Source of the DNA: a virus
Length of the DNA stretch: 46,806 nt
Virus genome (UHGV): UHGV-1361067
Strand: one strand, 5' to 3'
The notes below the pieces were generated by a model that had not been told where the DNA came from, did not search any database, and was given only the letters and a program-made list of their open reading frames with translations. Position numbers and translations under genes: made by a program. This document shows positions 1,268-20,007 of this stretch, piece by piece (within the stretch, counting starts at the first letter, position 1; each line of letters opens with the position of its first letter).

Positions 1268-2684
1268 CGGTCTGGCCCTGCTGTTGGTCTTGCTGTTGCT
1301 GCTGACCTTCCTGTAATCCGTCAGGAAGCTGCTCCTCCAGAGGCTCCATGCCAACAATGCCGCGCATTTCATCTGCGGTCATCAGGGCCATCTGTCCTGC
1401 ATCGAATACAGATTTGTTTGCAGTGGCAAGCTTGACCAGCAGGTCTGCTTTGTTCAGCTCGGAAGGTGCAAGCAGGTCATCCCATTTGCAGTAATAACCG
1501 CTCTCTGGCGCTTTATCCAGAATGCCAAAGGAAATCATCCGGTCGATGAACACCGAAATGATGTAGTCCAGCCAGTCTTCGCGGCGCTGTTTGGCGCTCA
1601 TGGCGTCGTCGGTTTTATCCTCATCGGATGCAAGGCGGCCAGTCTGCTGACCAAACAGGATGGTGAATGGCTTCTTGATGGATGCCGCAAACTGGTTGGC
1701 CGCAATTGTCCATGTTGGCCCTGGGTCTGCTGGCGTCACCGAGAGCACTTTGACATCAGCGCCCATCGTGAACATCGCCGCGTCAATTGCCTCATTCAGA
1801 CGCGCTACATCCTCATTGAGCACATCAGCCAGTTCTTCCAGCGGCACGCCCATTTGCTGAGCCAGAGACTGAGCGGAAACGCTGTCTTTATTATAATTAA
1901 CGTTGAGCTGCCGACTGGCATTCTTCAGGAAGCCCTCAGCGCTTGAGCCGGTGACTTTCGCCATGTCGATGAGGTGGTTATACCCAGCACGAAGAAGTGG
2001 GACGCCAGAGTAAATGGAGCCATCCATCGCACCCTCGGCAAATACGATAATGCGATCGGGATGAATGCTCAGGGAGCGCGTTGGTTTTCCGTCGCTGTTG
2101 CAGGCGCCGACTACCGACTCCTGATATTCGTACATCTTCGGCTGACCATAGTCTTCGCTGGATTCGTCATTTTCCCATTCACTGACGCGGAGCTGCTCTT
2201 CCCACGCCGGAATGTAGCGGACAATGGCAGCATCCTTGATGCGTTTTGTTTTCGTGGTGTCTACCGGCTCATTCCACTGCCTTCCATCACGGATTTGCAG
2301 GATAAGGCCGGAGTAGCGGTTGATGAGGTTGCGGCGGTCTGCATCCTTGATGAACGGCGCAGCGCGCTTAAACAGCTTGTTGGCTGCTTTCTCCCACGGG
2401 GTGCTTGCTTTGTCATCGGCGCCTTCTTCGAGGATTTGCGGCGGAGTCTGCCAGCACTTATCGAGTACGCGATTGACGCCAGCGGTTGCCGGTGCATAGC
2501 GCTCATAGGCATAGCGGAACATCTCGGCGGTGATTTCTTCAGGGTAGCCACATTCGACATACAGTCTGGTGTGCTTTTGGTCTATGTTTACACCGCTAAA
2601 CTCCCGACGCTGCCGCTCGATGAGCCTGTTATTGTTCGCCACTCGCTGCTGAATATAGGCGTTTACCGCCTCTAACTTTGACAT
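1248..2684 (-). CDS. Portal protein
   Basis: 478-aa ORF upstream of the MuF-like gene in the packaging/head module. It ends with an acidic Q-rich tail. Position and size are typical of SPP1/Mu-type portals. Confidence 0.75.
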
Positions 2685-2694
2685 TTCGTCACCA

Positions 2695-2722
2695 TAAAAA
2701 ATCCCATCGCATGGATGGGATT
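2695..2722 (-). terminator. Hairpin plus T-run (attenuator) immediately upstream of the portal start
   Basis: On the minus strand: ATCCCATC-catgc-GATGGGAT followed by TTTTT. It sits about 12 nt before the portal ATG. Confidence 0.35.
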
Positions 2723-2733
2723 ATAGCATGGTA

Positions 2734-2934
2734 TCAGTCACCAAAGGCTCTCTCTTGAAGGGCCTGGTCATTGTTATGGAATATAGCAAGCTCTATTCTA
2801 TCCCCAAGAACCAAACCGCGACATTTGGCGTACAATTTATAGCGCTTTCCACTGAGTCCAGGCTTAAACCATATCTCCTCAAACCACTTCCTGCAACCAA
2901 CCGCAACATCATGAATCTGTTTTCTTGTCATCAC
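2734..2934 (-). CDS. Hypothetical small protein
   Basis: 66-aa ORF. It is the last of a chain of five small minus-strand ORFs with ATGA/TGATG overlaps between the TerL cassette and the portal gene. Confidence 0.4.
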   Translation of the reverse strand: MMTRKQIHDVAVGCRKWFEEIWFKPGLSGKRYKLYAKCRGLVLGDRIELAIFHNNDQALQERAFGD

Positions 2935-3116
2935 TTCACCTCAACGCATTGCAAATTGTCAACATTTGGACTTACATCATTCCACGTCCGCTTTTCCTCA
3001 GCGATTTTCATTGCCGTAATGGCCGCCATGCACTGCTCCATGCTTTGCATCGGCACCACCTGCATATTGGACGTGTTGCTTGTGATTACGAATATCAGGA
3101 AGAAATACGACATCAC
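2931..3116 (-). CDS. Hypothetical small protein
   Basis: 61-aa ORF. It is translationally coupled to its neighbours (ATGA overlap). Confidence 0.4.
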   Translation of the reverse strand: MMSYFFLIFVITSNTSNMQVVPMQSMEQCMAAITAMKIAEEKRTWNDVSPNVDNLQCVEVK

Positions 3117-3761: not shown

Positions 3762-3772
3762 GATGCCCCTGG

Positions 3773-3824
3773 TGATGTAGTTATGTCAATGCGCCTTGAC
3801 GTAGATTCTAGCATGGCGTAGATT
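3773..3824 (+). promoter_or_regulatory. Rightward sigma70-like promoter with three copies of the TGAYGTAGATT motif
   Basis: TTGACG (3796-3801), 17-nt spacer, TAGATT (3819-3824). Motif copies: TGATGTAGTT at 3773, TGACGTAGATT at 3797, TGGCGTAGATT at 3814. The region is divergent with the leftward small-gene operon. Confidence 0.55.
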
Positions 3825-3850
3825 AAAATGAAACCTCTCGGAGAAATCTT

Positions 3851-4141: not shown

Positions 4142-4154
4142 TTTATTATAAATG

Positions 4155-4183
4155 TTGACGTGGATTCATGGTTGATGTAGATT
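4155..4183 (+). promoter_or_regulatory. Rightward promoter TTGACG-N17-TAGATT
   Basis: TTGACGTGGATT at 4155 and TTGATGTAGATT at 4172. It is preceded by AT-rich ATTTATTATAAAT. Confidence 0.5.
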
Positions 4184-4227
4184 GTAGTCATTGAGGCGGC
4201 CGGGGCCGAAATGAATGAGGTGCAAAA

Positions 4228-4560
4228 ATGCAATATCAAGAACGTACTACTGAATTACAAAACTTATATGCGGTTCGCGTAATAAATATGGTTTTAATGG
4301 GGATTGAGGTTAGTAAGTCGTCATACGTTGATCGCTTTATTCACTCACTCTACAACGGCGTTAAATCTAATTGGAATGAAGATTGCACATGGACTGAGCA
4401 CTTTGTTGAAAAACTTAACGAGGAGCGTGAGTCAATAAAAAATGGCTCTTATTGGAAGATGGGGGATTTTTTTAGATTAATTGCTGCTGAAGATAAGGAG
4501 TTCTGGGAGGCGATAGGTGTCCCATTTAAAACATGGAAAAGCATTCAGCTTTGCAATTGA
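4228..4560 (+). CDS. Hypothetical protein (AT-rich, moron-like)
   Basis: 110-aa ORF with a GAGGTG SD. Its GC content is markedly lower than the flanking genes. Confidence 0.5.
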   Translation: MQYQERTTELQNLYAVRVINMVLMGIEVSKSSYVDRFIHSLYNGVKSNWNEDCTWTEHFVEKLNEERESIKNGSYWKMGDFFRLIAAEDKEFWEAIGVPFKTWKSIQLCN

Positions 4561-4568
4561 TTACAGCC

Positions 4569-4592
4569 AGGCCCCGCAACGGGGCTTTTTCT
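4569..4592 (+). terminator. Rho-independent terminator GCCCCG-caa-CGGGGC + T5
   Basis: Perfect GC hairpin and T-run. The same hairpin core recurs at 37610. Confidence 0.6.
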
Positions 4593-7126
4593 TATCTCCT
4601 GCTCCTTCTAATCCATCCAGAGCCACGCTGTACGATGTGATCGTTGCATGCATATCTGATTGCGTCAATGAAGTGGTTCCACGCATCCACAATATTTGTG
4701 AGCACGTTACCCGTCAGCTTGTCCACCTTGTAACTGTACATAGTGAACTCTTCCTGAGTCTGTGTGCAGCGGTCATGAATGATGATGCTGTCGCAACCCC
4801 TGAGCCAGGTTACACCCTCCTCCACGCTCCCGGGCCACTTATTGCATGGATGGATATCAAATCCTGCGCGTTTGATGTGACTGATTGTTTCTGGCCGAGA
4901 GCAGTCCCCATACCATCTTGCCTTCCTGGAGAGTGGGAATGATTGCTCCATCGCTGTAGGTGTGTCGGTAATCTCAAGGCCTACACGGCCGTATTCGCGC
5001 GCGACGTAAAGGTTGCGGCGGTCATCAGGAAGTTTCTCAATGTAAACCTCAACCATCGCCGTTGCGTCCTGCGAGAATCCAAAGTCGATGCCAAAGTAAG
5101 GCCCATGCCATTCCGGCTTAACCTCGAAATCAGCAACGCGCCACTTACCGCCAAATACCTGCTCATCATTACGCTTATTAAAGCGCCCACCCCACACCCA
5201 TTGATAGCGGTCGAAGTCGGTCTCTTTCATGCGTTGCATTTGGCTTGGGAGCGGAGTATCCCAGAACCACGGATTGTCTGAGTAATTACACTCCATAATC
5301 AGGTTTTCATCATCCTCATAGATGCCGCCATTTTCGCGCAATTTATTATAAAAAGGCTCAACCCATATTTTCCACGTCGGGTCATGCTCTTTATTTGGGT
5401 TGAAAGTCACCCATATCTCTGACCCTTCAGCGCGGACTGTTGGGGTGAGGATTTCCCAGCTTGTCTGGCTGACGTTTTCCGCCTCCTCGACCCAAGCTAC
5501 TGTAATGCCAGCGAAGCCTTTTACGGTCGTCTGGTTGCGATACAGGCCTTTAAAGCGGAACTTTGCTTTCGTTACCTTGTGTGTTATTTCGTTGTTGATG
5601 ACGCGAAACTCTTTTGTCTCGCCCTTCCTGTCAATCTCGTCTTTCAGCTCCTGATATGAACTATCCTCAATAGACTGCTGAATCTCACGAAAACAAGCTA
5701 TCCTGTCAGGCTTAAAGCGTGCACGCTCCGTAAGTATTGTTGTTACTGTCCTTGTTTTTCCGCTGTTGTGTGTAACCGTGCCATCAGCAAGCAGGAAAAG
5801 ATGATCGCCATCAATAGTGAACCCAGCGTATTCACCATGCCCGACATAAGACAATGACACCTCAGACATCTTTCCACGGGTTGACTTGGTTTTCTCTGCT
5901 ATCTTCCTTTTTACTCGGCATGGGATTGTATGAAGGTCACCACTAACGAACACCTCCCATACGTCCTTTTCGTATATTCTTTTCTCACCTTTATATTCAA
6001 AGGTGACATCAGTCTTTTTGATTATGCTTGACTTGAAGCCAAGCGATCTTGCCACATCCATCAAAGAGAAGGCCATTTCTTTATTTATTGATGTGAAAGA
6101 ATAGCTTTTCTTTTTCTGGTCATAATGCGAATCAGTATCCAATAGCCCAGCCAGAATCTGAAGTCTTACCTCTCTGCTGTTTTTGATATAGCAGTCAGGT
6201 ATGTGTTTATTATTAATCACCCCAAGCTGCTGCATTTTAGTTAGTAACGGGTTGGTGTTCTTCCCCATGCCAGCAGCTCGACCATTAGTTATCGCATAGA
6301 CAGGGCATCTATCATCGTCGCGAACCTTTACCTGCATCCCGTATTGGCTTGCCACGTTGTGAATGTAGTCAACTATCTCTGGATCAGGCGTGCACACTTC
6401 AACACCACGAGATGAACCATCACCTAACCATAAACCAAGAAAGTACGGGTCAACTGGGACGCTTTGGTCATTAAAATCCCATCCTGTTCGCCACCCTTTA
6501 AAGACATGGCGGAACTTTTTTGAAGTTGCGCGCGACAAATATTCTGAAACACCAATATTCAGTATTTCAGGTTCATTCGGGTAATAACGATAAATTCTTT
6601 TACCATCCGGTGTTTTTGTCTCGTCACTGATAGCAGATGGAATCTTTCGTAATGACAGTATGTGACTTGAGTTGACAGTGTAGTCATCAGCATATTTTTG
6701 ATGAACCGTATACATGTCATCAAACCCCCGACAGATGTTTAAAACATTTCGTGGTTTACTGTCTGGACCCATAACCTTATCGCCAACAACGATATCCTCT
6801 ACGCGTTTTAGGCTACCATCAAACATCCTCACCATCGTGCCGATGGCTAAGCATCCGCGCCCGCCAAACACAATCTTATTACGCTTGGGGTAAAGTAGCT
6901 TTTCCAGCTTTTCTGGTATCAGGTGATCAACGCCAATATCAGAGTCGCTAACGTCATCAACTCCGCTTTGCGTCATTTTTAGTTTGCGAACAATCTGCTT
7001 ATCTGTATTAACAACACCGAACACCGCAGATTCAGGCGCATCAATCACGCCATCGCCAATAATCTCTTCGAGTTTTTCAATTGCTGGTGCTGAGAGTCTT
7101 TTGCGTGCCATATATAGATTCCTCAT
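4592..7126 (-). CDS. Terminase large subunit, interrupted by an in-frame intein
   Basis: 844-aa ORF. The N-extein ends …KIVFGGRG, and the C-extein begins SGKTRTV…, so the junction reconstitutes the Walker A motif FGGRGSGKT. Walker B-like VAWVEEAE lies downstream. Without the intein the protein is about 481 aa. Confidence 0.8.
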   Translation of the reverse strand: MRNLYMARKRLSAPAIEKLEEIIGDGVIDAPESAVFGVVNTDKQIVRKLKMTQSGVDDVSDSDIGVDHLIPEKLEKLLYPKRNKIVFGGRGCLAIGTMVRMFDGSLKRVEDIVVGDKVMGPDSKPRNVLNICRGFDDMYTVHQKYADDYTVNSSHILSLRKIPSAISDETKTPDGKRIYRYYPNEPEILNIGVSEYLSRATSKKFRHVFKGWRTGWDFNDQSVPVDPYFLGLWLGDGSSRGVEVCTPDPEIVDYIHNVASQYGMQVKVRDDDRCPVYAITNGRAAGMGKNTNPLLTKMQQLGVINNKHIPDCYIKNSREVRLQILAGLLDTDSHYDQKKKSYSFTSINKEMAFSLMDVARSLGFKSSIIKKTDVTFEYKGEKRIYEKDVWEVFVSGDLHTIPCRVKRKIAEKTKSTRGKMSEVSLSYVGHGEYAGFTIDGDHLFLLADGTVTHNSGKTRTVTTILTERARFKPDRIACFREIQQSIEDSSYQELKDEIDRKGETKEFRVINNEITHKVTKAKFRFKGLYRNQTTVKGFAGITVAWVEEAENVSQTSWEILTPTVRAEGSEIWVTFNPNKEHDPTWKIWVEPFYNKLRENGGIYEDDENLIMECNYSDNPWFWDTPLPSQMQRMKETDFDRYQWVWGGRFNKRNDEQVFGGKWRVADFEVKPEWHGPYFGIDFGFSQDATAMVEVYIEKLPDDRRNLYVAREYGRVGLEITDTPTAMEQSFPLSRKARWYGDCSRPETISHIKRAGFDIHPCNKWPGSVEEGVTWLRGCDSIIIHDRCTQTQEEFTMYSYKVDKLTGNVLTNIVDAWNHFIDAIRYACNDHIVQRGSGWIRRSRR
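5765..6853 (-). mobile_element. Intein (363 aa) with a double-LAGLIDADG homing endonuclease, in the terminase P-loop
   Basis: Begins with Cys (CLAIGTMV…) right after GGRG. Ends …LLADGTVTHN, followed by the +1 Ser (SGKT). Internal LGLWLGDGS and LAGLLDTDS motifs match LAGLIDADG. Boundary codons were verified on the sequence (gca at 6851-6853 is Cys; gtt at 5765-5767 is Asn). Confidence 0.75.
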
Positions 7127-7210
7127 CAGGGCATCATTGAAGTGAATGCGGCAGGCGGTGATGAGTCGCTTTTCGGGTGCCCCCTAGCCGCATTGATTAT
7201 TATAAATCAG

Positions 7211-7651
7211 TTACTGTTGCTGCTCCAGTAATTTCTCCAGTCGCTCAAGGCGTGCGGCGAGCTCTGTTACTTCTTCGATATCAAGCCCAGCCTTCAGAAT
7301 GTCTGCCATCATCTTGCCAATGTCGGCTGGAACAACGCCAGTAGAGACGCCCTTGATAATCGCATCCATCTTCTGTACAGGTGTGCCGTCGGCAGGGAAA
7401 TCAAACTCAACAGGAGGCGCTACAGGTTTTGGAATTGGGTTCAGTCGCAGGAATATTTCGCGCAGCATGCCGGTAGCCTGAGCATCTTCGCATGTCATCG
7501 CCTTGTTGATGTAGTACGTGACGAATTCAATCTCATTCATCGGCGTATTTGCAGCGCGCAATGCTTCAAGAAGCACTGTTCTGTAGCTTTTTCCTCTTGG
7601 TGGCGGCTGATTACTGGATGAAAATTTGTGCTTAGGGTTCGGATTTGCCAT
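7211..7651 (-). CDS. Putative terminase small subunit
   Basis: ORF immediately upstream of TerL. Likely start is the ATG at 7651 (MANPNPKHKF…), with an AAGGAC SD 9 nt upstream. It has a basic N-terminus and an acidic coiled C-terminus. The call rests on position only. Confidence 0.45.
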   Translation of the reverse strand: MANPNPKHKFSSSNQPPPRGKSYRTVLLEALRAANTPMNEIEFVTYYINKAMTCEDAQATGMLREIFLRLNPIPKPVAPPVEFDFPADGTPVQKMDAIIKGVSTGVVPADIGKMMADILKAGLDIEEVTELAARLERLEKLLEQQQ

Positions 7652-7768
7652 TTTATATGTGTCCTTTAAGTAACTCACATAGGACATATCTTACCACATG
7701 GCGCAGATAAAAAAGAAGCCAGCGCAATGCTGGCTTAAAGGGTGGTGAGGTGATGATCGATGAAACTA

Positions 7769-8254
7769 TCATACACCATGATTATCGTGAAACCCATACT
7801 CTTCTTCTGCTTTCTTTCTTGCCAGCTCCGCATCAAGTATGTCGTTGAAATATCCAAGATGTATGAACTTCTTGTTAACCCTTATTTTTGCTTGCCACTT
7901 TCGCTTATCCTTCCTCCAGTGTACCCCAGTTACTCCACTACTATTGCTAGAGTACTTAGATTTGTTTTTTAGATTCCCTCCCCTATTTGTCAGCCTGAGA
8001 TTTTCAATCCTGTTATCACCAGGGTTATGGTTTATATGGTCAATTTCCAATCCGCCAGTTATAGGGCCATTATGCATTTCCCATATGATTCTGTGCGCAA
8101 AGTATTTTCGTCCAGAGCACCAAATAGATGTATATCCTTTTGACCCTGAGTGGCCTGCAACCTTACCTTTTCTTGCCTTGCGGCCATCATCCTCGCGCCA
8201 TATCAGGTTTCCGTTGTTGTATTCAAACAGCTCATTCCAGTCTATTCTTTTCAT
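7769..8254 (-). CDS. HNH homing endonuclease with AP2 DNA-binding domain
   Basis: HNH_3 motif EIDHINHNPGDNRIENLRL and AP2-like SGVTGVHWRKDKRKWQAKI…LGYF. Likely start is MKRIDWNELF at 8254, with GGAG upstream. It is a paralog of the genes at 16738 and 17730. Confidence 0.75.
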   Translation of the reverse strand: MKRIDWNELFEYNNGNLIWREDDGRKARKGKVAGHSGSKGYTSIWCSGRKYFAHRIIWEMHNGPITGGLEIDHINHNPGDNRIENLRLTNRGGNLKNKSKYSSNSSGVTGVHWRKDKRKWQAKIRVNKKFIHLGYFNDILDAELARKKAEEEYGFHDNHGV

Positions 8255-8411
8255 CACACTTACCGCTCCTGCACCACAAATCATTGCGTGGGGATTTAAC
8301 ATGAACCACCTCAATCGCATCAGGAAAGGCCTTGGCGATTGCTGCTATAAAGTGGTCGACGCCTTCAATCTGCGCGGACTGCCACACCTCTTGCTTTGAT
8401 TTTTGCGGCAT
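8232..8411 (-). CDS. Hypothetical small protein
   Basis: ORF on the track. Likely start is MPQKSKQ. It overlaps the HNH start by about 23 nt. Confidence 0.3.
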   Translation of the reverse strand: MPQKSKQEVWQSAQIEGVDHFIAAIAKAFPDAIEVVHVKSPRNDLWCRSGKCDEKNRLE

Positions 8412-8661
8412 CACTGATACCTCGTAGTTGAGTACATATGCCGAAGCATACTGTTATGCTCAACCACCATCATCATGCTGCCAACCTGAATTACGGCATG
8501 ATGCTTTCCGGTATCCTCATAAAGAAAATCAGCCTCTTCGCATGCTGCCTGAATATCGCTCCACAGCATAAATCACCTCACGATAAAGTAGACAGCTAAC
8601 GCAGCAGCAATCCAGAATGCCAGCAGTGATGCGGCAATCAGTCTTCGGATGATGTAGGGTT

Positions 8662-9363
8662 TCATTGTTTCCCCTCCTGCGGGGCGGCTGCAATCATCGC
8701 TCGATAAGCCGTGGGGCTATACACAGCCGCTTCACGATAGGAAGCCTGTAGCATTTCCTCCGTAGGCTCCTTCGGGACCATCACGTAACCATCCGGCACT
8801 ACCGGCGCTGGCTGCATTTCATCTTGCTCTGCGCGCAAATCCTCCAATTCCTCACCCAATTTCAAAATATACTCGATGACATGAGAGTGAATACCATGGC
8901 AGTTATCCTTGAATAGCTGCTCAGATACCCCCTCATAACATTTCACCGTGGGGTTGCTTTTGCTTTTGATGAAGGAAACGATAGCGTCAAGAGCGTTTTT
9001 GCTTCCGATATGATTTTCCACCGGCTCGCTGTCCATTGCGGCCAGCTGGCGCTCAGCCAATTCCGCGCGAGCATCGAGCGTCACGTTAGCTGCACAGAGT
9101 TTTTGCTCTGCGTCTTCCAGTTCGGCGATCCGCTGCTGCGCCTTCTCCAGTGCCTCTACCAGCGTGCCAATAACCTTTGCAGCTTGCCCGCACTCATCGA
9201 CGATAGAAACGTTGGTGCCGGTATCTCGGCCATCTACCTCAAACCGCAAATCAACGTCATCGGAGTCGATATCAGCAGGCTCAAACTGCGAGATATATTC
9301 CAGGGTAAATACAGACGCTTTAGCTTTACTGACGAGTAGCGCCAGTTCGGTGATATCAGTCAT
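8662..9363 (-). CDS. Hypothetical coiled-coil protein (Ead/Ea22-like?)
   Basis: Likely start is MTDITELALL at 9363. The central coiled coil (EALEKAQQRIAELEDAEQKL) resembles Ea22-family early proteins of enterobacterial phages. Recalled from memory. Confidence 0.4.
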   Translation of the reverse strand: MTDITELALLVSKAKASVFTLEYISQFEPADIDSDDVDLRFEVDGRDTGTNVSIVDECGQAAKVIGTLVEALEKAQQRIAELEDAEQKLCAANVTLDARAELAERQLAAMDSEPVENHIGSKNALDAIVSFIKSKSNPTVKCYEGVSEQLFKDNCHGIHSHVIEYILKLGEELEDLRAEQDEMQPAPVVPDGYVMVPKEPTEEMLQASYREAAVYSPTAYRAMIAAAPQEGKQ

Positions 9364-9802
9364 GATTAGCCCCCTCGCGCAGCTGCTTGGCGAAGTCGTC
9401 AGCAGAAAGTGCAACCCCTTTTGCTAAAGCGTCAAAAAACTGGTCATCACCAGGGATTCGAAGTTTTGCCGCGAACTTCTCAACTCCGCGCGCCTCGGCT
9501 TCGGCCATGATGCGATCGGTAGCTGGGGTTTCCGGCGCATGCATAATTGCGACAAGCATTGCATCATGCATGCAATCCGCATCAGAGCATCCAAGCGCCT
9601 CTGCTGTTTTAAACTCCCGGTACATGTTTTTGAATGCATCCGTTTTGCACCATGCGTTGATGTCCTTCAGCGCCACATTCTCCGCAGCCAGCTGCGCACA
9701 CAGCTTTGCAACATTGAGGTATTTTTCCTCTTTGATTGAGAGTTCACCACCGCTCTCAAGATTTTTAATAATTTCCTGAACTTCGTTGATTTCGATATCC
9801 AT
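9356..9802 (-). CDS. Hypothetical protein
   Basis: 148-aa ORF in the leftward early operon. Confidence 0.5.
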   Translation of the reverse strand: MDIEINEVQEIIKNLESGGELSIKEEKYLNVAKLCAQLAAENVALKDINAWCKTDAFKNMYREFKTAEALGCSDADCMHDAMLVAIMHAPETPATDRIMAEAEARGVEKFAAKLRIPGDDQFFDALAKGVALSADDFAKQLREGANHD

Positions 9803-9808
9803 AAATCC

Positions 9809-10087
9809 TCACTTAACTGCCTGCAAGCGCTCAAGCTCACGCATCAGTGCAGATACACGGCGTTGCCGCAAAGTCTCTGCATGCTCTTTTGCCTGCTGCT
9901 CATCAAGCCAGTATTCACCACGTTTAAAGTAAACATCGCCAACCACAGCAACCTGCCCATCAGCAAACAACTGTGCGCTTTCGTACTTCTGAATGCCACG
10001 GGTTAGTGCGTACTTCGTGACCCATATTGTTTCAGCGCTTGCCGCGTTAGCGATAACCAGTAAAACCACTGCCAGTAATTTATTCAT
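9809..10087 (-). CDS. Hypothetical secreted protein (signal peptide)
   Basis: N-terminus MNKLLAVVLLVIANAASA-ET is a typical Sec signal. Confidence 0.55.
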   Translation of the reverse strand: MNKLLAVVLLVIANAASAETIWVTKYALTRGIQKYESAQLFADGQVAVVGDVYFKRGEYWLDEQQAKEHAETLRQRRVSALMRELERLQAVK

Positions 10088-10102
10088 CGTTGCTAAACCG
10101 GT

Positions 10103-10288
10103 TTAGTTTCCACCAGATGACACGATAACCTGCTCAAGCACTCTCTGCTTGCCTTCGCCACTAAAAACTCGACAGACGCGCTTACCGTTGCTGTATGAAT
10201 GCATTGCCTGCGCCATCATAAAGTCTTGCGCTTTCACTGCGCCCATTTCTGGTTCCAGTTGAGTGCGCGTGTAGATTGCTTTGGTCAT
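10103..10288 (-). CDS. Hypothetical protein (first gene of the leftward early operon)
   Basis: 61-aa ORF. A GAGG SD precedes the ATG on the minus strand. Confidence 0.45.
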   Translation of the reverse strand: MTKAIYTRTQLEPEMGAVKAQDFMMAQAMHSYSNGKRVCRVFSGEGKQRVLEQVIVSSGGN

Positions 10289-10319
10289 TCTTCATCACCT
10301 CTTTGTTGTTGGTGTGGTA

Positions 10320-10348
10320 ACTATACGATGGCGCTCAATCTACGTCAA
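10320..10348 (-). promoter_or_regulatory. Leftward promoter TTGACG-N17-TATAGT containing TTGACGTAGATT
   Basis: The minus-strand sequence tattgacgtagattgagcgccatcgtatagt has the same architecture as the rightward promoter at 35399. A second GTGTAGATT copy lies at 10270-10279 on the plus strand. Confidence 0.5.
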
Positions 10349-10388
10349 TATGATGGTGAAAATAAATATAATACTGTACATTCATTCA

Positions 10389-10657
10389 GTGTTCCCACAA
10401 TTCCCAGCCGTTCCCGGACTAGTTCCCCGAATTTATTGTTATATATCAACGAGTTCCCGAGTTCCCAGCTTTTCCCTTAGAAATGAATTTTCCCAAAAAT
10501 CAGAAATTCCATTTTTAATAATAAAAACAACAACATATATTAAAGGTATATATTACTTTTTTACTAGAGGAATTCCCCGGGAACTCGGGAACTCCTCTGC
10601 AAGCCTTGGTGTGAGCGGCCTGCGAGTTCCCAAATGCGCGGGAACTCTTGGGAACTG
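10389..10657. repeat. Iteron array: GAGTTCCC / GGGAACTC direct and inverted repeats flanking an AT-rich element
   Basis: Plus orientation: GTTCCC-type copies at 10391, 10400, 10410, 10421, tandem GAGTTCCC at 10451 and 10459, and GAGTTCCC at 10624. Minus orientation: tandem GGGAACTC at 10579 and 10587, 10640, and GGGAACTG at 10650. A palindromic pair GAGTTCCC-N8-GGGAACTC lies at 10624-10647. An AT-rich stretch at about 10495-10565 lies between the arrays. Confidence 0.7.
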
Positions 10658-10717
10658 GTTAAAAAGTGACCATTGCACATATTGCGTCGATGCTGGGTGT
10701 TTATGTCGATTAAATGG

Positions 10718-10747
10718 TTTGCGTGAGTGCAGATTGTTCAGTACAAT
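10718..10747 (+). promoter_or_regulatory. Putative rightward early promoter TTGCGT-N17-TACAAT
   Basis: Hexamers at 10719-10724 and 10742-10747. It is followed by a strong AAGGAGGAAG SD for the gene at 10774. Confidence 0.4.
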
Positions 10748-10773
10748 TTGCACAACGCAAGAAGGAGGAAGTG

Positions 10774-11052
10774 ATGCACGCAGAAGGCTCAAAGATGAAG
10801 TTCGTTTATGACCACCTTGCCACCATGAATAGCGGGGAGGTGATATCCGTCCATTTCGAAAATGATTTATCAGATTCAGTGGTCAGGGGTTACAAAGAGG
10901 AGTGCGGCGTATCTGATATCCCGCCAGAGTACAGAATGAACAGAAACATGTTCCGATCTTATGCTGCAAAGATTGCCATTGCGCATAACATGAACATCAA
11001 GACCAAAAACGGCCCGATGGGTAAATTCCTGTACATCTGGAAGGTTTGCTGA
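10774..11052 (+). CDS. Hypothetical protein
   Basis: Starts at the ATG at 10774 (MHAEGSKMKF…) after an AAGGAGGAAG SD. Its stop overlaps the next start (TGATG). Confidence 0.55.
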   Translation: MHAEGSKMKFVYDHLATMNSGEVISVHFENDLSDSVVRGYKEECGVSDIPPEYRMNRNMFRSYAAKIAIAHNMNIKTKNGPMGKFLYIWKVC

Positions 11053-12701
11053 TGAATACATACGAAATTATCGCCATGAAAAAATCCGTCTGGAAATCGG
11101 ATTCATCAACAGACCCGCTCGATGAGGCTGACATTCCTGAGTTCAGGGAGAAATACAAGATTCCACCAGGATCACTTGGTGAGTTCATCCAGGAGATAGA
11201 AAAAAACTTCGAGCGCCGTGATGATGGCGAAAAGTATCGACTTGTTGGCGCGCTTGGTCTTGCTCAGATAATGGCGGGCAGATTTATTATCGGCCCCACA
11301 GGAAGTAAGTGCTCAACTGGCATTTTCCTCGTGGCGAGGTCTGGAGCAGGGAAGCAGGCTCCGGTAAATTTCATAAAGCAATATGCCGAAGCTCTCATGA
11401 TAAGTGACCGTCTTTGCACTACTACTGCGACATCACTAAAGCAAATACAGACCAGCATGATTGAAGGTGATGGCTCCCTGCTTTACGTGGTAAACGATGA
11501 CAAGCAGCACATTGACTCATGGAACGACCCGCGCAGCGCATATCTTGGAGGAACAGCTCCGTGGTATCGCGGATTATCTGATGAGGGTGGATGGGTGCCG
11601 ACAAGGACAATAATCAGGGATATTGAGGAGAATATGGCTAAAGCCATGAACCCCAAGACGATAGTTAGTGTTGCTATGGCGGAAGGCTGGATTGTTCCGC
11701 GTATTGGCGGTGCGCAGGATGGGATGATTGACTATAAAAGATTGGCGCAGATGGATCACAGTGTTGGCAGAAACCTGAAAAAAGTTATGGCTGAGCATGA
11801 ATTATGCACGCGCGATGGAGGCATTGAGAACGCGAGATTTATTCCACTCATCACTGTAACTCCGGTTCAGGGTATTGATGCAGTCAGGTCATGGCAGAAG
11901 GATGGCGGCATGGGCAGGACGTTGTTCATTCTTGGTCATGGCGATGATGAGGAAATGCCATTGCTCAAAAGAGAGCAGCCGACAGGTGAGGTAAACAGGA
12001 GGATAGTAAATGAATGGAAGCAAAGAATCCTGCGCTCAATAACCCGAGTTGAATTTGAAAGCGAAAAGGTAAACGACAGGCGTTATGAGCTTACGTGCCA
12101 CCTTGAGAAGTGTCTTGGAAATGTGGATGGTGTAATTGGAGATGTTGTCCCACGTGCCGGGCAGATGATTGTGGACCTTGCCTCGATATGCGCATTTGCA
12201 GACCTTTCGAGTCGCAATGGAATGACGCCAGTTTTGTGCGACCGGCATCTTGAATGGGCTTATATGACAGTGATAAACCACCTGCGCTCACTTCGTGATT
12301 ATATAGAAGGTGACGTTGCATTTAGTGGCCTTGAAGAGGATGAGTGGGAAAACATCATAGCCAAAATGAGAAAGGTGATGGCAGGTAAGAAATTCATTAA
12401 TAAGCCTTACACGTCTGTACTGAAAAGCGGGTTGTGCCGTGGACGAATTGAGACGATCATTAAGGCAGCAAATTCAAATCATCTACAGGTGACGCCTGAC
12501 AGGTTCATTTCTGAGGTTCTGGTTTCCATTACAGAGAACCGACACTCACCTATCGACATTGAGGCTTCTGCTGTTAACGGTGGGTCAAAAATCGTCTTCA
12601 GGGATGAGGGGTCATGGTCTGGGCTGCGAATGAATGCCTCGGTGAGAAACATACTTTCAGCCGCCGTTAACAGGATGAAATTTATGAGAGGTCTGAAATG
12701 A
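11052..12701 (+). CDS. Putative replication-associated NTPase (degenerate P-loop)
   Basis: About 549 aa from the ATG at 11052. Contains P-loop-like IGPTGSKCSTGIFLVARSGAGKQ. It lies adjacent to the iteron region and could be an initiator, helicase loader or primase-associated ATPase. The function is inferred. Confidence 0.4.
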   Translation: MNTYEIIAMKKSVWKSDSSTDPLDEADIPEFREKYKIPPGSLGEFIQEIEKNFERRDDGEKYRLVGALGLAQIMAGRFIIGPTGSKCSTGIFLVARSGAGKQAPVNFIKQYAEALMISDRLCTTTATSLKQIQTSMIEGDGSLLYVVNDDKQHIDSWNDPRSAYLGGTAPWYRGLSDEGGWVPTRTIIRDIEENMAKAMNPKTIVSVAMAEGWIVPRIGGAQDGMIDYKRLAQMDHSVGRNLKKVMAEHELCTRDGGIENARFIPLITVTPVQGIDAVRSWQKDGGMGRTLFILGHGDDEEMPLLKREQPTGEVNRRIVNEWKQRILRSITRVEFESEKVNDRRYELTCHLEKCLGNVDGVIGDVVPRAGQMIVDLASICAFADLSSRNGMTPVLCDRHLEWAYMTVINHLRSLRDYIEGDVAFSGLEEDEWENIIAKMRKVMAGKKFINKPYTSVLKSGLCRGRIETIIKAANSNHLQVTPDRFISEVLVSITENRHSPIDIEASAVNGGSKIVFRDEGSWSGLRMNASVRNILSAAVNRMKFMRGLK

Positions 12702-12751
12702 ATTTTAACACTCGCATCACTTCCACCGCCAAAAAATGCAATCTTGAGTAA

Positions 12752-12782
12752 CAAAAACCCTCCATCAGGAGGGTTTATTTTT
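12752..12782. terminator. Bidirectional terminator AACCCTCC-atca-GGAGGGTT flanked by A/T runs
   Basis: Hairpin between the convergent 11052-12701 (+) and primase (-) genes. It overlaps the primase stop. Confidence 0.55.
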
Positions 12783-13658
12783 TAGTGCTTCAAATAGCTC
12801 TTCTGGTTTATGCAGCCTTTTTCTGATGGCGCCGCTGTAACGAATATCCTGCCCGTCATCAGTAATGAGTATCGGCAGACCTGCATTCTCGGCAGCGCAT
12901 ACCTCATCGAAATTATTATTAATGATGCAACGCAGTTTAGTGCGCTGCTCATAGTTAACATTGCGCACAACTTCCCACATGTTTTCCGGCGACCAGCAAC
13001 ACCAGACATGTGCGCCGGTAAGCCTGTGTGCTCGCCAGGCATCGAAGTAATCCGCAACCAGGTATGTCCACTCTGTTTTTTCACCAATCGGTGTCACTGC
13101 GCCTCGCGTAAGTCTTCCGCGAGTGTACTCATGGCTAAAACCTGCGCGAAATGACACGCTTTCATAGTCTGCCAGAAAAGCTACATTGCATGGCGTCATG
13201 GTTCCAGCCATATAGAGCGGTATCGCCACCAGTTCACCAGTTTTACCTGTTATGGTGTCATTGCCTGCTTTTTTCATGATCGCCTCTACTTCTTCTGGAG
13301 TAAGGCAGTCCGATGCACCATTGACTTTTGGCAACTGCTTTCTAATCGCCTCAAGTTTTTCGCGTGGATGCATGTTCAGGAATCCTCCTAGCGCCTCAAG
13401 TGCTTCTGGGAAGCTCATGCCAGAGAGTTTCATCAGCCAGTTCATGCCGCTGCCGGAACCGCACTGATTGCAGATTGCGCCGCCATCGCCTTTCGTTTCG
13501 AAGTTGTCATCAAAGCGATACCTGTCTTTGCCAAGGCATGATGGGCATGGCTGGTGCTTTCCGTTGAAAACTCTGCTATCCACATTGACGATAGACATGA
13601 TGGCAGCCTGCCAATTTCCAAGCATTTTTGGCTCAATGTCTTTCCAGTCGTATCTCAT
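12765..13658 (-). CDS. DNA primase (Zn-ribbon + TOPRIM type)
   Basis: Primase Zn-ribbon motif HQPCPSCLGKDRYRF…CNQCGSG near the N-terminus. The TOPRIM-like C-terminal half includes ILITDDGQD. Likely start is MRYDWKD at 13658, with an AGGAAG SD. Confidence 0.7.
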   Translation of the reverse strand: MRYDWKDIEPKMLGNWQAAIMSIVNVDSRVFNGKHQPCPSCLGKDRYRFDDNFETKGDGGAICNQCGSGSGMNWLMKLSGMSFPEALEALGGFLNMHPREKLEAIRKQLPKVNGASDCLTPEEVEAIMKKAGNDTITGKTGELVAIPLYMAGTMTPCNVAFLADYESVSFRAGFSHEYTRGRLTRGAVTPIGEKTEWTYLVADYFDAWRAHRLTGAHVWCCWSPENMWEVVRNVNYEQRTKLRCIINNNFDEVCAAENAGLPILITDDGQDIRYSGAIRKRLHKPEELFEALKNKPS

Positions 13659-13670
13659 AAAATCTTCCTG

Positions 13671-13699
13671 TTGACGATGATGTAGATTCATTGTAATTT
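13671..13699 (+). promoter_or_regulatory. Rightward promoter TTGACG-N17-TAATTT with TGATGTAGATT in the spacer
   Basis: First element of the duplicated module; compare 17664-17692. Confidence 0.5.
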
Positions 13700-13730
13700 A
13701 CTCGTATGAAACAATCAATCGTTACTTGCA

Positions 13731-14807
13731 ATGAAACAATTAATCGTTACAATAGAGGATAAGAAATGGCTATCACCGTCAAGAAGTGCGAGGTTTGCGG
13801 AAATGAGTTTATCGGAACTGCAAAAGCAAAATGTTGCTCAGGAAAGTGCAGGGTTAAAAAATGCAGGAACCAAAAGAAAGTCACACATTTCACAGGAGAG
13901 GCTAAGGGAGGTTCTTGATTACAACCCAGATACTGGGATATTCACACGTAAGATAAAGACAGGTTCTCGTGTTAAAGTCGGAGATATTGCTGGCTGTCTT
14001 GATGTTAGTGGTTATCTGAGAATTAGCATAGATGGCAATCAATATTGGGCGCAAAGACTCGCATGGATTTATGTTAATGGAGATAATATTGGGAATGCGA
14101 AAATTGAGCACATAAACAAAAATCGCGCTGACAACAGGATATGCAACCTCAGGCTTTCAACTGAAGTTTTAAATGAGAAAATGTGCTCAAAATGCAGGTC
14201 CGTTCTTCCAGCTACAAGCGAATACTTTTATGCAGATAAAAGTATGAAACTTGGCTTTAGTTCCATATGCAAGAAGTGCTCTGGTAATAAAGGGAAGAGA
14301 GCAAGATACCTTGGTAATGGATTGAAGATTTGCTCTAAGTGTAAATCTGTTCTTGAGGCGAACGAAGAAAACTTTAATAAAAATAAATCATCTCTTGATG
14401 GACTACGTCCTGATTGCAAAAAATGTCAGGCTGAGTTCAGGAAAAATATTTATAAATTAAAAAAGGCAGAGATAAATGAAAAATCAAAACGTTATTACGA
14501 TAAAAACAAGGAAAAGCATAACGAGAAGTCAAAGCAGTGGAGACAGAAAAACAAGGGTGTTGTTAGATATCATCAGCGTAAATATAAGTATCTTAAAAGA
14601 CGGGCGATACCATCATGGTTTGAACATGAAAGGGTTTTAATTGAAAAGGTTTATGAGATGGCTGGCGTTCTTGGTATGCAGGTTGATCACATAGTGCCAA
14701 TAAATAGCAAATTGGTTTGTGGCCTTCACTGCTGGCATAACTTGCAATTACTTGCACCAAGTGAGAACAGATCTAAAAGCAACTCTTATTGGCCTGACAT
14801 GCCATAG
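13731..14807 (+). CDS. Double-HNH endonuclease (N-terminal HNH_3, two Zn-ribbon repeats, C-terminal canonical HNH)
   Basis: IEHINKNRADNRICNLRL (HNH_3), CSKCRS…CKKC twice, and C-terminal VDHIVPINSKLVCGLHCWHNLQLLAPSENRSK. The conserved body starts at about 13900. The N-terminal about 55 codons overlap the Zn-ribbon ORF in another frame, so the real start is uncertain. Confidence 0.6.
   Translation: MKQLIVTIEDKKWLSPSRSARFAEMSLSELQKQNVAQESAGLKNAGTKRKSHISQERLREVLDYNPDTGIFTRKIKTGSRVKVGDIAGCLDVSGYLRISIDGNQYWAQRLAWIYVNGDNIGNAKIEHINKNRADNRICNLRLSTEVLNEKMCSKCRSVLPATSEYFYADKSMKLGFSSICKKCSGNKGKRARYLGNGLKICSKCKSVLEANEENFNKNKSSLDGLRPDCKKCQAEFRKNIYKLKKAEINEKSKRYYDKNKEKHNEKSKQWRQKNKGVVRYHQRKYKYLKRRAIPSWFEHERVLIEKVYEMAGVLGMQVDHIVPINSKLVCGLHCWHNLQLLAPSENRSKSNSYWPDMP
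13766..13918 (+). CDS. Small zinc-ribbon protein (50 aa, CxxC…CxxxC)
   Basis: MAITVKKCEVCGNEFIGTAKAKCCSGKCR…. Has a good SD (AGAGGATAAG). Differences from the paralog at 17753 are mostly synonymous in this frame. Confidence 0.55.
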   Translation: MAITVKKCEVCGNEFIGTAKAKCCSGKCRVKKCRNQKKVTHFTGEAKGGS

Positions 14808-14815
14808 GTGATGAA

Positions 14816-16741
14816 ATGCACAAAATAGACAAAATGATTTCAGAGATTGATATAGATAGATTAAAGCAATCAATAAAAATAGGTTCCATAGAGCCGTATG
14901 ATTACCAATGGCTTGTTTACGCAAAGTGCGCTGAGGTTATTCGTAATTTTGGCAAGAAACCTGAACCAAGCTATGTTACAGCGTCTGTTTCATCAGGGAA
15001 GACCGTGATGATTTCAATGCTTTGCAGTAGATTTCAGGATATGGGGTGGGATGGCCTTGTAATCTCAAGGCAGGGCGAGATAGCTGAGCAGAATGCTGAA
15101 ATGATGTGGGAGTGTGGTGTAAAAAACTCTCTTTATAGCGCATCTCTTGGCAGGAAAAGTACAGCATACCCTATTATATGCGGTACTGAAGGATCAATCG
15201 CGAACGCACTTTTTGATAAAAAAGATGAATCAAATGGTGACGTCAAGAAAGGGGGATTGAGTAATTTTACCCCAAGATTTTGCCTGATCGATGAGTCCCA
15301 CCAAGCTCCATGGCAGGATATTATTAGTGATAATCCAACAACACAATATGGCGTAATACTTACTGAACTTAACAGGCGCTGCAAGGCAAGATATGGTCAT
15401 GAAATGATAACAATTGGATTCACCGGTAGCCCATTCCGTGGTACTGAATCAATGAAAGGTGCGTACTGGAAAAATGAAATAATAAACATTGATACAAAGT
15501 ACATGGTAGATCGCGGTTTTGTTGTGCCAACAATCTTTGGTCTTCATGATGTTGATGATTTGAAATATGACTTGCATAACTTCCATGGTTCAGATGTTGA
15601 CGGCACACAGGACTTCACTTCCGAGCAGCTCAAGCAGATGCAGAAAGAAATACTTGAGCAAGGAACACTAACGCAGAAAATCATGCTCAAGGTTATGGAG
15701 TTGACTAAAAACAGGAACGGAGTGCTGATCACATGCGCTGGTAAAAAACACTGTCAGGAAGCGGCTAAATATTTACCCGAAGGAAGTTATGCTATCGTCA
15801 CCGAGGATATGGGGCAGAAAGCCAGACGCAAGGCGTTAAAAGACGCATACACTGGCAAGATTAAATATGTTTTCCAGATTGGTTGTTTGACGACTGGCGT
15901 CAACATCCCGCTTTGGGATACAAGCGTCATATTGCGAAAAATAATGTCACTCACTCTTCTTGTGCAGCTTCTTGGTCGCGGAATGCGCCTGCTGAAGAAA
16001 GAACAAATTGATGCCGGGTATCATAAAGAAGACCATCTGGTTCTTGATTTCTCAGGCACGATGTTTGAGCTTGGTCAGCTATATGAAGACCCAATCCTTG
16101 AAGAGGCTGAAGCGCAACGTTCAAAACGCAGTGGTGAACAAGTTCCGTGCCCGAAATGCGGGGCAATGAATAGCCCATATGCGCGTCGCTGCATCGGCAA
16201 AGATGCATTGTCGCCAGATGGTCGTTGCGAGGAGTTTTTCAGTTACATTCGTTGCGGTTTCGACAAGCATGGCATCCGTATTTTTGATGATGGATGCGGC
16301 ACTAAAAACGACCCCACTGCGCGTTATTGCCGACATTGCGATCATGTTTTGCGCGACCCGAATGCGGCACTTAATGAGCGTGCGTATACCGATAATGAGT
16401 GGACTGATGTTAAAGACTTCAAGATTGAATTAACGAAAGATGAAAAGGGTGTCGTTTATCGTTATTTCATCACGAAAGAGAATGGCAAAGATGGGTGGGC
16501 TAATGAGGTCTTTTATCCTTTTGGGAGACAAGAGAAGTATCTGAAAAATCAGTTCAAGATTAAAGGTTTATTGAATCACGTATCAGACAGGAATCTAATT
16601 GATAACCTTATGAATTGCCACAGTGCAAAAGCATTCATGGCATTTACTGGACTTATTCGCGCACCTAAACGCATCACGCATCGATTTAACGATAAAGGCC
16701 GCGATATCATCCACAGAAAAGAATTCGGACAAAAAAAATGA
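14816..16741 (+). CDS. SF2 DNA helicase (DEAH-type) with C-terminal zinc fingers
   Basis: Motif I ASVSSGKT, motif II LIDESHQ, motif VI QLLGRGMR. C-terminal CPKCG…RRC and CRHCDH. Confidence 0.75.
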   Translation: MHKIDKMISEIDIDRLKQSIKIGSIEPYDYQWLVYAKCAEVIRNFGKKPEPSYVTASVSSGKTVMISMLCSRFQDMGWDGLVISRQGEIAEQNAEMMWECGVKNSLYSASLGRKSTAYPIICGTEGSIANALFDKKDESNGDVKKGGLSNFTPRFCLIDESHQAPWQDIISDNPTTQYGVILTELNRRCKARYGHEMITIGFTGSPFRGTESMKGAYWKNEIINIDTKYMVDRGFVVPTIFGLHDVDDLKYDLHNFHGSDVDGTQDFTSEQLKQMQKEILEQGTLTQKIMLKVMELTKNRNGVLITCAGKKHCQEAAKYLPEGSYAIVTEDMGQKARRKALKDAYTGKIKYVFQIGCLTTGVNIPLWDTSVILRKIMSLTLLVQLLGRGMRLLKKEQIDAGYHKEDHLVLDFSGTMFELGQLYEDPILEEAEAQRSKRSGEQVPCPKCGAMNSPYARRCIGKDALSPDGRCEEFFSYIRCGFDKHGIRIFDDGCGTKNDPTARYCRHCDHVLRDPNAALNERAYTDNEWTDVKDFKIELTKDEKGVVYRYFITKENGKDGWANEVFYPFGRQEKYLKNQFKIKGLLNHVSDRNLIDNLMNCHSAKAFMAFTGLIRAPKRITHRFNDKGRDIIHRKEFGQKK

Positions 16742-17262
16742 ACTGGCATGATTATTTTTACTATGAAAATGGCCTTCTTATATGGAAGGAAAGAGATGTT
16801 TCAACTTTTAAAACGAAGAGGTCAGCAGCCACTTGGAATACCAGGTTTGCACATAAAACGGCAGGTAACAAGTGCCCAAGGTTTGGTTATGTAATGGTCA
16901 GAATTGGCAGGGGTCTTTATCGTGCACATAGAATCATATGGGAAATGCATAACGGTCAAATACAAGGAGATATGCAGATTGATCATATCAACCATGTTCG
17001 TGATGACAATCGAATAGAAAATCTCAGGCTAGTTAATAATCTTGGGAATGGCATGAATCAAAGTATCGCAGCCAATAACACCTCTGGAGTTACTGGTGTG
17101 ACATGGAACTCAGACAGGAAGAAATGGATGGCTCAAATAAAAGTAAAGGGTAAAAACATTTATCTTGGGCTATTTGTTGATTTTAATAATGCAGCAAAAG
17201 CAAGAGCGGAAGCCGAGGTTAAGCACGGATTCCATCAAAACCACGGTAGGAGAACAAATTGA
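16738..17262 (+). CDS. HNH homing endonuclease with AP2 domain
   Basis: HRIIWEMHNGQIQGDMQIDHINHVRDDNRIENLRL plus SGVTGVTWNSDRKKWMAQIKV. ATGA overlap with the helicase stop. Confidence 0.75.
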   Translation: MNWHDYFYYENGLLIWKERDVSTFKTKRSAATWNTRFAHKTAGNKCPRFGYVMVRIGRGLYRAHRIIWEMHNGQIQGDMQIDHINHVRDDNRIENLRLVNNLGNGMNQSIAANNTSGVTGVTWNSDRKKWMAQIKVKGKNIYLGLFVDFNNAAKARAEAEVKHGFHQNHGRRTN

Positions 17263-17692: not shown

Positions 17693-17729
17693 TAGTAACA
17701 AATAAAAGTTACTTGCAATGTAACGGTAA

Positions 17730-19998: not shown

Positions 19999-20007
19999 GG
20001 GTAAATT

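Follow-up and report, generated by a model that had tools for sequence, protein, structure and literature searches.

The window analysed here, the whole 46.8-kb stretch of DNA presented above (46,806 nucleotides (nt), UHGV virus genome UHGV-1361067), represents essentially the complete genome of a siphophage of Klebsiella, closely related to BUCT541 and KpnS_VR6602. Positions 10389–10657 hold an array of short repeats (iterons) on both sides of an AT-rich tract, upstream of two genes encoding a protein of 92 amino acids (aa) and a P-loop protein of 549 aa. An earlier note on this DNA had put the region forward as an iteron-type replication origin. We describe the array and the genes that travel with it, and weigh this interpretation against its alternatives.

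Twelve sites flank the most AT-rich tract of the genome

The iteron is 8 bp long, with the consensus GAGTTCCC and the core TTCCC. Degenerate copies included, 12 conserved sites lie within 10389–10657, six to the left and six to the right of the AT tract. Their conservation was assessed in an alignment of eight distinct sequences in which this word is used (the window, BUCT541, VR6602 and the loci L013–L017, hereafter class A). The region comprises the following features:

10389–10427 (+): four left outer iterons, GTGTTCCC at 10389, CAATTCCC at 10398, CCGTTCCC at 10408 and TAGTTCCC at 10420, spaced by 9, 10 and 12 bp and all facing the AT tract
10451–10466 (+): left inner tandem pair GAGTTCCC-GAGTTCCC, exact copies at 10451 and 10459, invariant in the eight sequences
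10467–10569 (no strand): AT-rich tract, presumed DNA-unwinding element, GC content 15–22% in 40-bp windows
10540–10577: 38-nt block TTAAAGGTATATATTACTTTTTTACTAGAGGAATTCCC at the right edge of the AT tract, identical in all eight class-A sequences
10570–10594: right inner sites, GAATTCCC (+) at 10570, head-to-head with the tandem pair GGGAACTC-GGGAACTC (–) at 10579 and 10587, which faces the AT tract; nearly invariant in the eight sequences
10595–10608 (+): asymmetric marker CTCTGCAAGCCTTG, adjoining the right inner pair; its 10595–10605 part is CTCTGCAAGCC
10624–10657: right outer sites, GAGTTCCC (+) at 10624, eight nucleotides, GGGAACTC (–) at 10640, TT, GGGAACTG (–) at 10650; conserved in the eight sequences

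All six sites of the left arm are oriented rightwards. The innermost tandem pairs, on the plus strand to the left and on the minus strand to the right, converge across the AT tract, which they bracket as a perfect 16-nt inverted repeat (GAGTTCCCGAGTTCCC / GGGAACTCGGGAACTC, 10451–10466 / 10579–10594, 112 bp apart).

The clustering of the repeats is not a product of base composition: the exact word GAGTTCCC occurs six times on the two strands, where 0.69 occurrences are expected, and none of 100 dinucleotide-preserving shuffles reached six. All six exact copies of the window are confined to 197 bp (10451–10647). Allowing one mismatch, 11 of the window's 22 matches fall inside 10389–10657; likewise, 10 of the 15 GTTCCC hexamers lie within 10391–10655. 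No other 300-bp window of the 46.8 kb contains a second comparable cluster of 7- or 8-mers.

The arrangement that the earlier note had described, an 8-mer in both orientations around an AT-rich stretch, is borne out by these six exact copies on both strands and six sites per side, and the palindromic pair that it had pointed out, GAGTTCCC-N8-GGGAACTC, lies at 10624–10647. Its count of at least seven clear copies was too high: there are six exact ones, and seven or more are reached only with one mismatch. Two of its four degenerate TTCCC copies also have to be given up: these are TTTTCCC strings within the AT tract (10470–10476 and 10488–10494) that mutate freely across the eight sequences and are probably not sites.

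The AT tract itself (~100 bp, ~20% GC overall) is confirmed: it holds the lowest-GC 60-bp (13.3%, from 10504), 80-bp (17.5%, from 10482) and 100-bp windows of the 46.8 kb. Among class-A relatives its left half is variable and its right half invariant. The 38-nt block at 10540–10577 may be the place where loading or melting starts, or a promoter; a promoter scan returned none at these positions. A structured RNA was rejected as an explanation of the region, as Rfam gave only chance-level matches (E 0.6–0.9, far under the gathering scores).

In the eight aligned sequences, 93% of the TTCCC-core columns of the 12 sites are invariant, versus 59% of the non-motif columns (Fisher p = 1e-7). The difference is larger in the left arm (93% versus 44%), where the cores of the outer iterons are essentially invariant, with two single-base exceptions, and the spacers vary. 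This pattern indicates that the 12 sites are under purifying selection.

The repeats belong to an exchangeable cassette

The genes and signals around the array are the following:

10320–10348 (–): leftward sigma-70-like promoter TTGACG-17 nt-TATAGT (–35 at 10343–10348), found by scan, for the DUF7540 operon; in the conserved left flank, outside the cassette
10369–12701 (+): exchangeable replication cassette, made up of the repeat/AT region, the 92-aa gene and the 549-aa helicase gene
10719–10747 (+): putative rightward promoter TTGCGT-17 nt-TACAAT, read by eye and under the scan threshold; conserved among class-A sequences
10762–10768: Shine-Dalgarno sequence AAGGAGG, downstream of the putative rightward promoter
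10774–11052 (+): 92-aa protein, candidate accessory origin-binding protein, loader or autoregulator; TGATG overlap, translationally coupled to the helicase gene
11052–12701 (+): 549-aa MCM-like AAA+ helicase (superfamily 6 (SF6), DUF3987-related), presumed initiator
12765–13691 (–): DnaG/T7-type primase, outside the cassette
14816–16741: superfamily 2 (SF2) helicase

The P-loop protein, primase and SF2 helicase genes are thus placed as the earlier note had them. Its description of the region as an early control hub between divergent early promoters fares less well: a leftward promoter was found by scan and a rightward one can be read by eye, and neither is overlapped by the repeats.

A nucleotide search with positions 9800–11300 retrieved 52 related phage records, three of which cover at least 80% of the query. 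KpnS_VR6602 (95%) and BUCT541 (93%) align over its full length, while about 50 more records (KpV2811, ZX4, BUCT610, ZCKP8, Tbat1_6 and others) align only to its first 568 bases, that is, up to ~10368. In most related records, similarity in the left flank (~95%) ends at this position, just past the leftward promoter, and resumes at the primase gene. The proteins of the two flanks are accordingly shared by phages with unrelated cassettes (identity is 95% for the DUF7540 protein of ZX4 and 96% for the primase of BUCT610), as is the sequence of the leftward promoter. By contrast, BLASTP detected no similarity between the window helicase and the protein found at the same place in phages with unrelated cassettes.

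The repeat word found at this position differs with the cassette type: KpV2811, ZX4 and BUCT610 have GGGG/ACCC-type words, VLCpiS13c has TAAAGTC and G9 tracts, and Tbat1_6 has AACCCA and TTATCCAA. Since the words change between conserved flanks, the reader of GAGTTCCC must be encoded in the cassette and not in the flanks. The left-flank proteins were rejected as binders for the same reason, the DUF7540 protein being nearly the same in phages with different words. These comparisons show real, non-random sites that accompany the cassette proteins and change word along with them.

In the annotations of the relatives examined, the genes adjoining the repeat region are unnamed; the helicase and the small protein are both labelled hypothetical in BUCT541, KpV2811, ZX4, BUCT610 and KpnS_VR6602. 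The genome papers of BUCT541 and BUCT610 do not mention a replication origin.

Two of the unrelated cassettes show features of their own. Tbat1_6 (L007, ~3806–3900) has, in addition to its AACCCA repeats, three copies of TTATCCAA, of which one is inverted and the other two are direct; they look like DnaA boxes (TTATCCACA), which hints that some cassette types may recruit host DnaA. In VLCpiS13c (L031/L006), the replication module is reversed and lies on the minus strand. It encodes a Cro/YdaS-like helix-turn-helix (HTH) protein of 80 aa, a PrimPol-PriCT2-DUF3987 fusion of 772 aa and a 125-aa protein, followed by a terminator-like hairpin with a T run (recognized by eye) and then by the repeat region (five TAAAGTC copies and two G9 tracts), downstream of the operon. 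Its recombination set also differs (Sak4, Gam, SSB).

The cassette encodes an MCM-like helicase and a small partner

The 549-aa protein matches the helicase part of phrog_3022. An exhaustive profile search with its family among 1.8 billion protein representatives gave 41 relatives at E < 1e-3, among them several with a match to Pfam DUF3987 or with primase domains (PrimPol or NrS-1 type) ahead of the matching region. A transitive link leads to DUF3987: profile A1 matches P0026 (E = 3e-7) and P0021 (E = 1e-10), which score 35.3 bits (above the cut-off) and 25.8 bits, respectively, against PF13148. DUF3987 proteins are SF6, MCM-like predicted replicative helicases with a C-terminal winged HTH, often paired with primases of the DnaG or archaeo-eukaryotic type (PMC4889955), and one member is a proven helicase (PMC11724360).

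An AlphaFold2 model built from a 29-sequence alignment reached a predicted local distance difference test (pLDDT) score of 87.6, compared with 49.9 for a 6-sequence alignment, and has an MCM-type AAA+ fold. Residues G100 and K101 of the Walker A motif, R289 and R368 are invariant in the family; from their positions, the two arginines would be the arginine finger and sensor 2. In the C-terminal region (~452–520), the model displays the helix-helix-helix-hairpin order typical of a winged helix.

The family is a rare and divergent branch. No relative of the helicase was found in 185,579 bacterial and archaeal species genomes (one per species), and the family appears confined to a narrow phage group, in the gut and other metagenome or sequencing-run records retrieved. 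In ZX4 and BUCT610, the place of the helicase is taken by clear-cut DUF3987 proteins (E = 2e-35), and in VLCpiS13c by the PrimPol-PriCT2-DUF3987 fusion mentioned above.

The 92-aa protein has no Pfam, PHROG, NCBIfam or PDB-profile match, and a homologue lies upstream of every homologous helicase found. At the corresponding position, ZX4 encodes an AP2-type DNA-binding domain and VLCpiS13c a Cro/YdaS HTH. No DNA polymerase was noticed among the proteins scanned, the window not having been surveyed systematically for one.

Sister origins have drifting words and an inverted core

Scans of viral and metagenome sequences for further relatives of the cassette returned mostly classes already known, plus one new class (D). 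The sister loci are listed with their repeat word and the identity of their helicase to that of the window:

Class A (window, BUCT541, VR6602, L013–L017): helicase 90–99%, GAGTTCCC
Class B (L008, L009, L019–L021): helicase 53%, GAGTTACCGG
Class C (L012, L018): helicase 57–58%, TTTACCGG
Class C (L011): helicase 42%, TTTACCGG
Class D (L030): helicase ~47%, GAGTTAGTGG / AGTTATCGG

All sister loci keep the small-protein homologue and have the same layout: outer sites and an inner pair on one side of an AT spacer, and an inner tandem pair followed by further outer sites on the other. The spacer between the inner pairs measures ~105–115 bp (~76–80 bp in L011). There are thus four or five iteron words within a single helicase family, and unrelated words in the unrelated cassettes at the same locus. 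The repeat word drifts along with the cassette proteins while the architecture of two arms and an AT-rich centre stays.

The window core aligns with the sister origins as its reverse complement. In this orientation it scores 35–42, to be compared with a shuffle mean of 19–20 (standard deviation 2–3, maximum 25–30); in the forward orientation it scores 21–30 and exceeds the shuffle maximum only at L012 (30 versus 27), through a match in the AT tract and not in the iteron core. The order of the sites and the marker are mirrored in the sister cassettes, with GGCTTGCAGAG... on the opposite side of the AT tract (GGCTTGCAGAGGAG beside the inner pair), and the genes are collinear. Because of this mirrored order and of the reverse-complement alignment, the comparison indicates that the core is inverted in the GAGTTCCC lineage relative to the sister cassettes without inversion of the genes. 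The core would thus function whichever way it faces with respect to the neighbouring genes.

Classes A, C and D have a GCGGCTTGC(A/G)GAG-like element beside the inner iteron pair. Marker-like elements were located at 10595–10608 in the window and at ~262–283 in L012, ~1512–1533 in L018, ~2585–2603 in L011, ~3740–3760 in L006 and ~4625–4640 in L002. Moreover, a 14-nt string, ATGACGCGGCTTGC, is common to L012 and to the otherwise unrelated repeat region of VLCpiS13c, and KpV2811 has GCGCAAGCCTTG. The marker could be a shared start, primase or host-factor site.

Class-C cassettes have two small genes upstream of the helicase gene (665–913 and 921–1211 in L012; ~1923–2150 in L018). The extra protein, of 82 aa, resembles a distant paralogue of the 92-aa protein, with which it shares a GS-K/N-L..VY start and an ...R/K-V end.

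Which cassette protein reads the repeats

The class-C locus L012 separates the two domains of the helicase. Its ATPase core is closer to the window (65%) than to class B (50%), whereas its C-terminal domain is closer to class B (63–65%) than to the window (45–52%). The iteron core of L012, TTACCGG, is that of class B. On the strength of this domain tracking we favour the C-terminal domain of the helicase as the iteron reader, as a tentative first choice that falls a little short of being probable.

For the small protein, similarity is highest (47%) between classes A and B, whose words have the GAGTT half in common. That this protein acts as reader or co-reader is a less likely option, to be taken seriously nonetheless. 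A combination of the two, in which the 92-aa protein would read the conserved GAGTT half and the C-terminal domain of the helicase the variable half (CCC, ACCGG or AGTGG), strikes us as rather improbable. If such a two-part initiator did exist, specificity could evolve stepwise, and origin-initiator cassettes could be swapped, even flipped, between near-identical phages, possibly as a means of evading replication-targeting interference or incompatibility.

The region is probably a replication origin

Taken with the exchange of the cassette, the repeat array leads us to regard 10389–10657 as probably the phage replication origin, in which iterons and an AT-rich element are served by a helicase-initiator encoded in the same cassette, by analogy with the Rep/ori systems of Staphylococcus aureus pathogenicity islands (SaPIs). 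The proposal made in the earlier note, an iteron-type origin tied to the adjacent P-loop protein, thereby gains computational support from the MCM-like nature of that protein, the cassette organization, the co-varying word and the preserved architecture.

In this origin, the initiator would be the 549-aa helicase, binding the iterons of both arms, probably via its C-terminal winged-helix-like domain; the co-translated 92-aa protein might aid or replace it in DNA recognition. Oligomers would assemble in opposite orientation on the two sides and melt the AT tract, the helicase would then load itself, and the separate DnaG/T7-type primase (12765–13691) together with the host polymerase would take over.

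Several points weigh against this interpretation. We infer binding, melting and origin firing from sequence analysis. The 549-aa protein gives no sequence match in Pfam (including at the gathering score of PF13148), NCBIfam or the PDB; a comparison by hhalign of a shallow profile with the DUF3987 protein of ZX4 gave no match either, so that membership of DUF3987 is suggested by the modelled fold and by intermediate sequences. Similarly, the winged-helix assignment derives solely from the order of secondary-structure elements in the model, and the domain-tracking argument from a single informative comparison. The AP2- and Cro-like equivalents of the 92-aa protein mean that this protein could be the reader, or that the sites could also serve regulation. 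No DnaA box, IHF consensus or GATC is present in 10250–10800, though none is required for an origin of this type. Finally, the cumulative GC skew of the window has its global minimum at 10605, in agreement with an origin, but this minimum coincides with the switch in transcription direction and is confounded by it, so that it does not count as independent evidence.

The alternative that survives best is an array of operators or enhancers for a cassette-encoded transcription factor, such as the 92-aa protein, that would control the divergent early promoters and have no origin function. The repeats do sit between the leftward promoter and the putative rightward one, other cassettes have a DNA-binding domain (AP2 or Cro/YdaS-like HTH) as their small protein ahead of the helicase, and a word that co-varies with the cassette suits a regulator as well as an initiator. 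There is also a precedent in plasmid pRN1, whose small ORF56 protein, cotranscribed with a helicase-primase, is a copy-control repressor (PMC4234260). The layout speaks against operators: all 12 sites lie clear of the core promoters, the closest being ~40 bp upstream of the leftward –35 element and ~60 bp upstream of the putative rightward –35 element (10719), and 12 sites distributed across 270 bp, with the genome's most AT-rich tract in their midst, are not an operator arrangement. The leftward promoter and the first genes remain unchanged whichever repeat word adjoins them. In VLCpiS13c, the analogous repeats lie ~3 kb from the promoter of the PrimPol-DUF3987 replication operon and therefore are not operators of that operon. 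Lastly, the GAGTTCCC lineage has the entire core turned round with respect to both promoters, with the gene order unchanged, which is easy to square with an origin and hard to square with promoter-specific operators. We thus consider a purely regulatory array unlikely.

A second alternative is a dual function, in which the origin would also mediate autoregulation of the helicase operon, the head-to-head pair at 10624–10657 being the regulatory site. Head-to-head pairs such as GAGTTCCC-N8-GGGAACTC are found on the promoter-proximal side, and a conserved class-B pair of the same type (GAGTTACCGG-TCGA-CCGGTAACTT) lies across the AT tract from the replication-operon promoter, as the inversion of the core predicts. 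In iteron plasmids, Rep autorepression indeed operates through inverted half-iterons (PMC4980987). However, the pair at 10624–10657 is clear of the putative –35 and –10 elements, and the inversion places it near the rightward promoter here and near the leftward promoter in the sister cassettes, which argues against a fixed regulatory role. This possibility therefore seems quite unlikely to us.

Far less probable is a packaging (pac) site or a genome terminus, the repeats being sites of terminase binding. Some pac sites, such as that of P1, do have short repeats flanking the cleavage region, and the records of KpV2811, ZCKP8, ZC2, ZCKp20p and XY3 start or end within the region. Record starts are nevertheless arbitrary if one judges from ZCKp20p, a relative for which PhageTerm indicates packaging by the headful mechanism, the genome being terminally redundant and in part circularly permuted (PMC9901506). 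In addition, KpV2811 is 95.7% identical to the window over 3000–10367, large terminase subunit included (27% of the query aligned, in six pieces), yet its repeat word is completely different, and the left flank with the terminase is 95–96% identical in phages whose words differ. It is thus the helicase cassette, and not the terminase, that the repeats accompany. The two ends of the window share no repeat. A cos site or physical genome ends at this place were rejected on the combined grounds of the headful relative, the absence of an end repeat and the lack of co-variation with the terminase.

The idea that the region is protein-coding, with the repeats as a repetitive peptide, can practically be set aside: the window does have an open frame at 10281–10811 (145 codons without a stop across the region), and the BUCT541 record has a hypothetical-protein coding sequence at 2679..3014 (equivalent to ~10350–10685 of the window) across the iterons and AT tract, but the frame contains seven stops in L013 and seven in L016, single-base insertions or deletions break it in L016 and L017, copies lie on both strands, and conservation tracks the motif rather than codon positions. 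A coding region was rejected for this lack of conservation among relatives, from which the repeat region is judged non-coding and the BUCT541 coding sequence probably spurious.

Relation to known replication systems

The closest parallel to the proposed origin is found in the SaPIs. Experiments on their origins have established 6–12 short iterons around an AT-rich centre, with at least two iterons per side in opposite directions; a self-loading SF3 or SF6 helicase reads these iterons through its C-terminal winged-helix domain. The loading of two hexamers, on either side, has been proposed, elements differ in their specificity, and the primase is separate or fused (PMC9371898). The window resembles them, and especially the SF6/MCM-like Rep2/SaPIbov1 type, in its six plus six sites, its converging inner pairs, the adjacent MCM-like helicase and the cassette-specific words. 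It differs in the position of the array, which lies upstream of the 92-aa/helicase operon, whereas the SaPI origin is immediately downstream of rep (the VLCpiS13c array is also downstream). The iterons of the window are, moreover, longer, an extra small protein is present, and the host and the kind of element are others.

Like the DUF3987 (PF13148)/SF6 helicases, the 549-aa protein has the MCM-type AAA+ fold in its model, conserved Walker A (GK) and Walker B motifs and the two conserved arginines; its C-terminal region would also be winged-helix-like. A DnaG-type primase gene accompanies it, as has been reported of the family (PMC4889955). Unlike them, it falls below every Pfam threshold and is linked to the family solely through intermediate sequences.

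The ori of the satellite phage P4 contains octameric type I iterons (TGTTCACC) in both orientations, which are bound by the C-terminal winged-helix domain of the alpha helicase-initiator. P4 alpha is an SF3 helicase fused to a primase and needs a second cis site, crr, ~4.5 kb away. The window has octamer iterons in both orientations in common with P4, but no crr-like second GAGTTCCC cluster.

The iterons of plasmids such as pPS10, RK2, F and R6K and of lambda ori are direct repeats of 17–22 bp, bound by Rep proteins with two winged-helix domains (WH1-WH2) or by O proteins, which bring in the DnaB helicase of the host; these origins usually have DnaA boxes, and that of lambda is located within the O gene. 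Initiator-specific repeats beside an AT-rich unwinding element, and the exchange of origin and initiator as a unit, are common to these systems and to the window. The repeats of the window, by contrast, are 8-bp and convergent, there is no DnaA box, no cassette protein is Rep- or O-like, and the cassette has a helicase of its own. The principle of iterons and an AT-rich element beside a helicase-initiator is thus already well known.

Other features of the genome and its relatives

The open reading frame of the large terminase (4592–7126, –) encodes 844 aa, compared with 473–474 aa in relatives. It contains an intein, with a Hint domain (residues 92–178) and a LAGLIDADG homing endonuclease (~309–375) N-terminal of the Terminase_3 match (454–648). 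Three genes for HNH homing endonucleases (13731–14807, 16738–17262 and 17730–18356, all +), two of which encode AP2 domains, are scattered in the replication/recombination cluster. The one between the primase and SF2 helicase genes also occurs in L009 and is missing from L008.

Two sequences named as a Vibrio phage (pYD38-A) and an Aeromonas phage (pIS4-A) are 91–96% identical to the window over many kb (3000–20000). These host labels, odd for relatives of a Klebsiella phage, may have been mis-assigned.

Implications

If the proposed origin is correct, its placement together with that of its initiator would supply a testable replication module for phages that are under development for therapy, and the exchangeable cassette would account for a hot spot of mosaicism in these genomes. 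The related origins, which span four or five iteron words and include one inverted core, would form a natural series suited to the study of how MCM-like self-loading helicases recognize their origins and how this specificity evolves.

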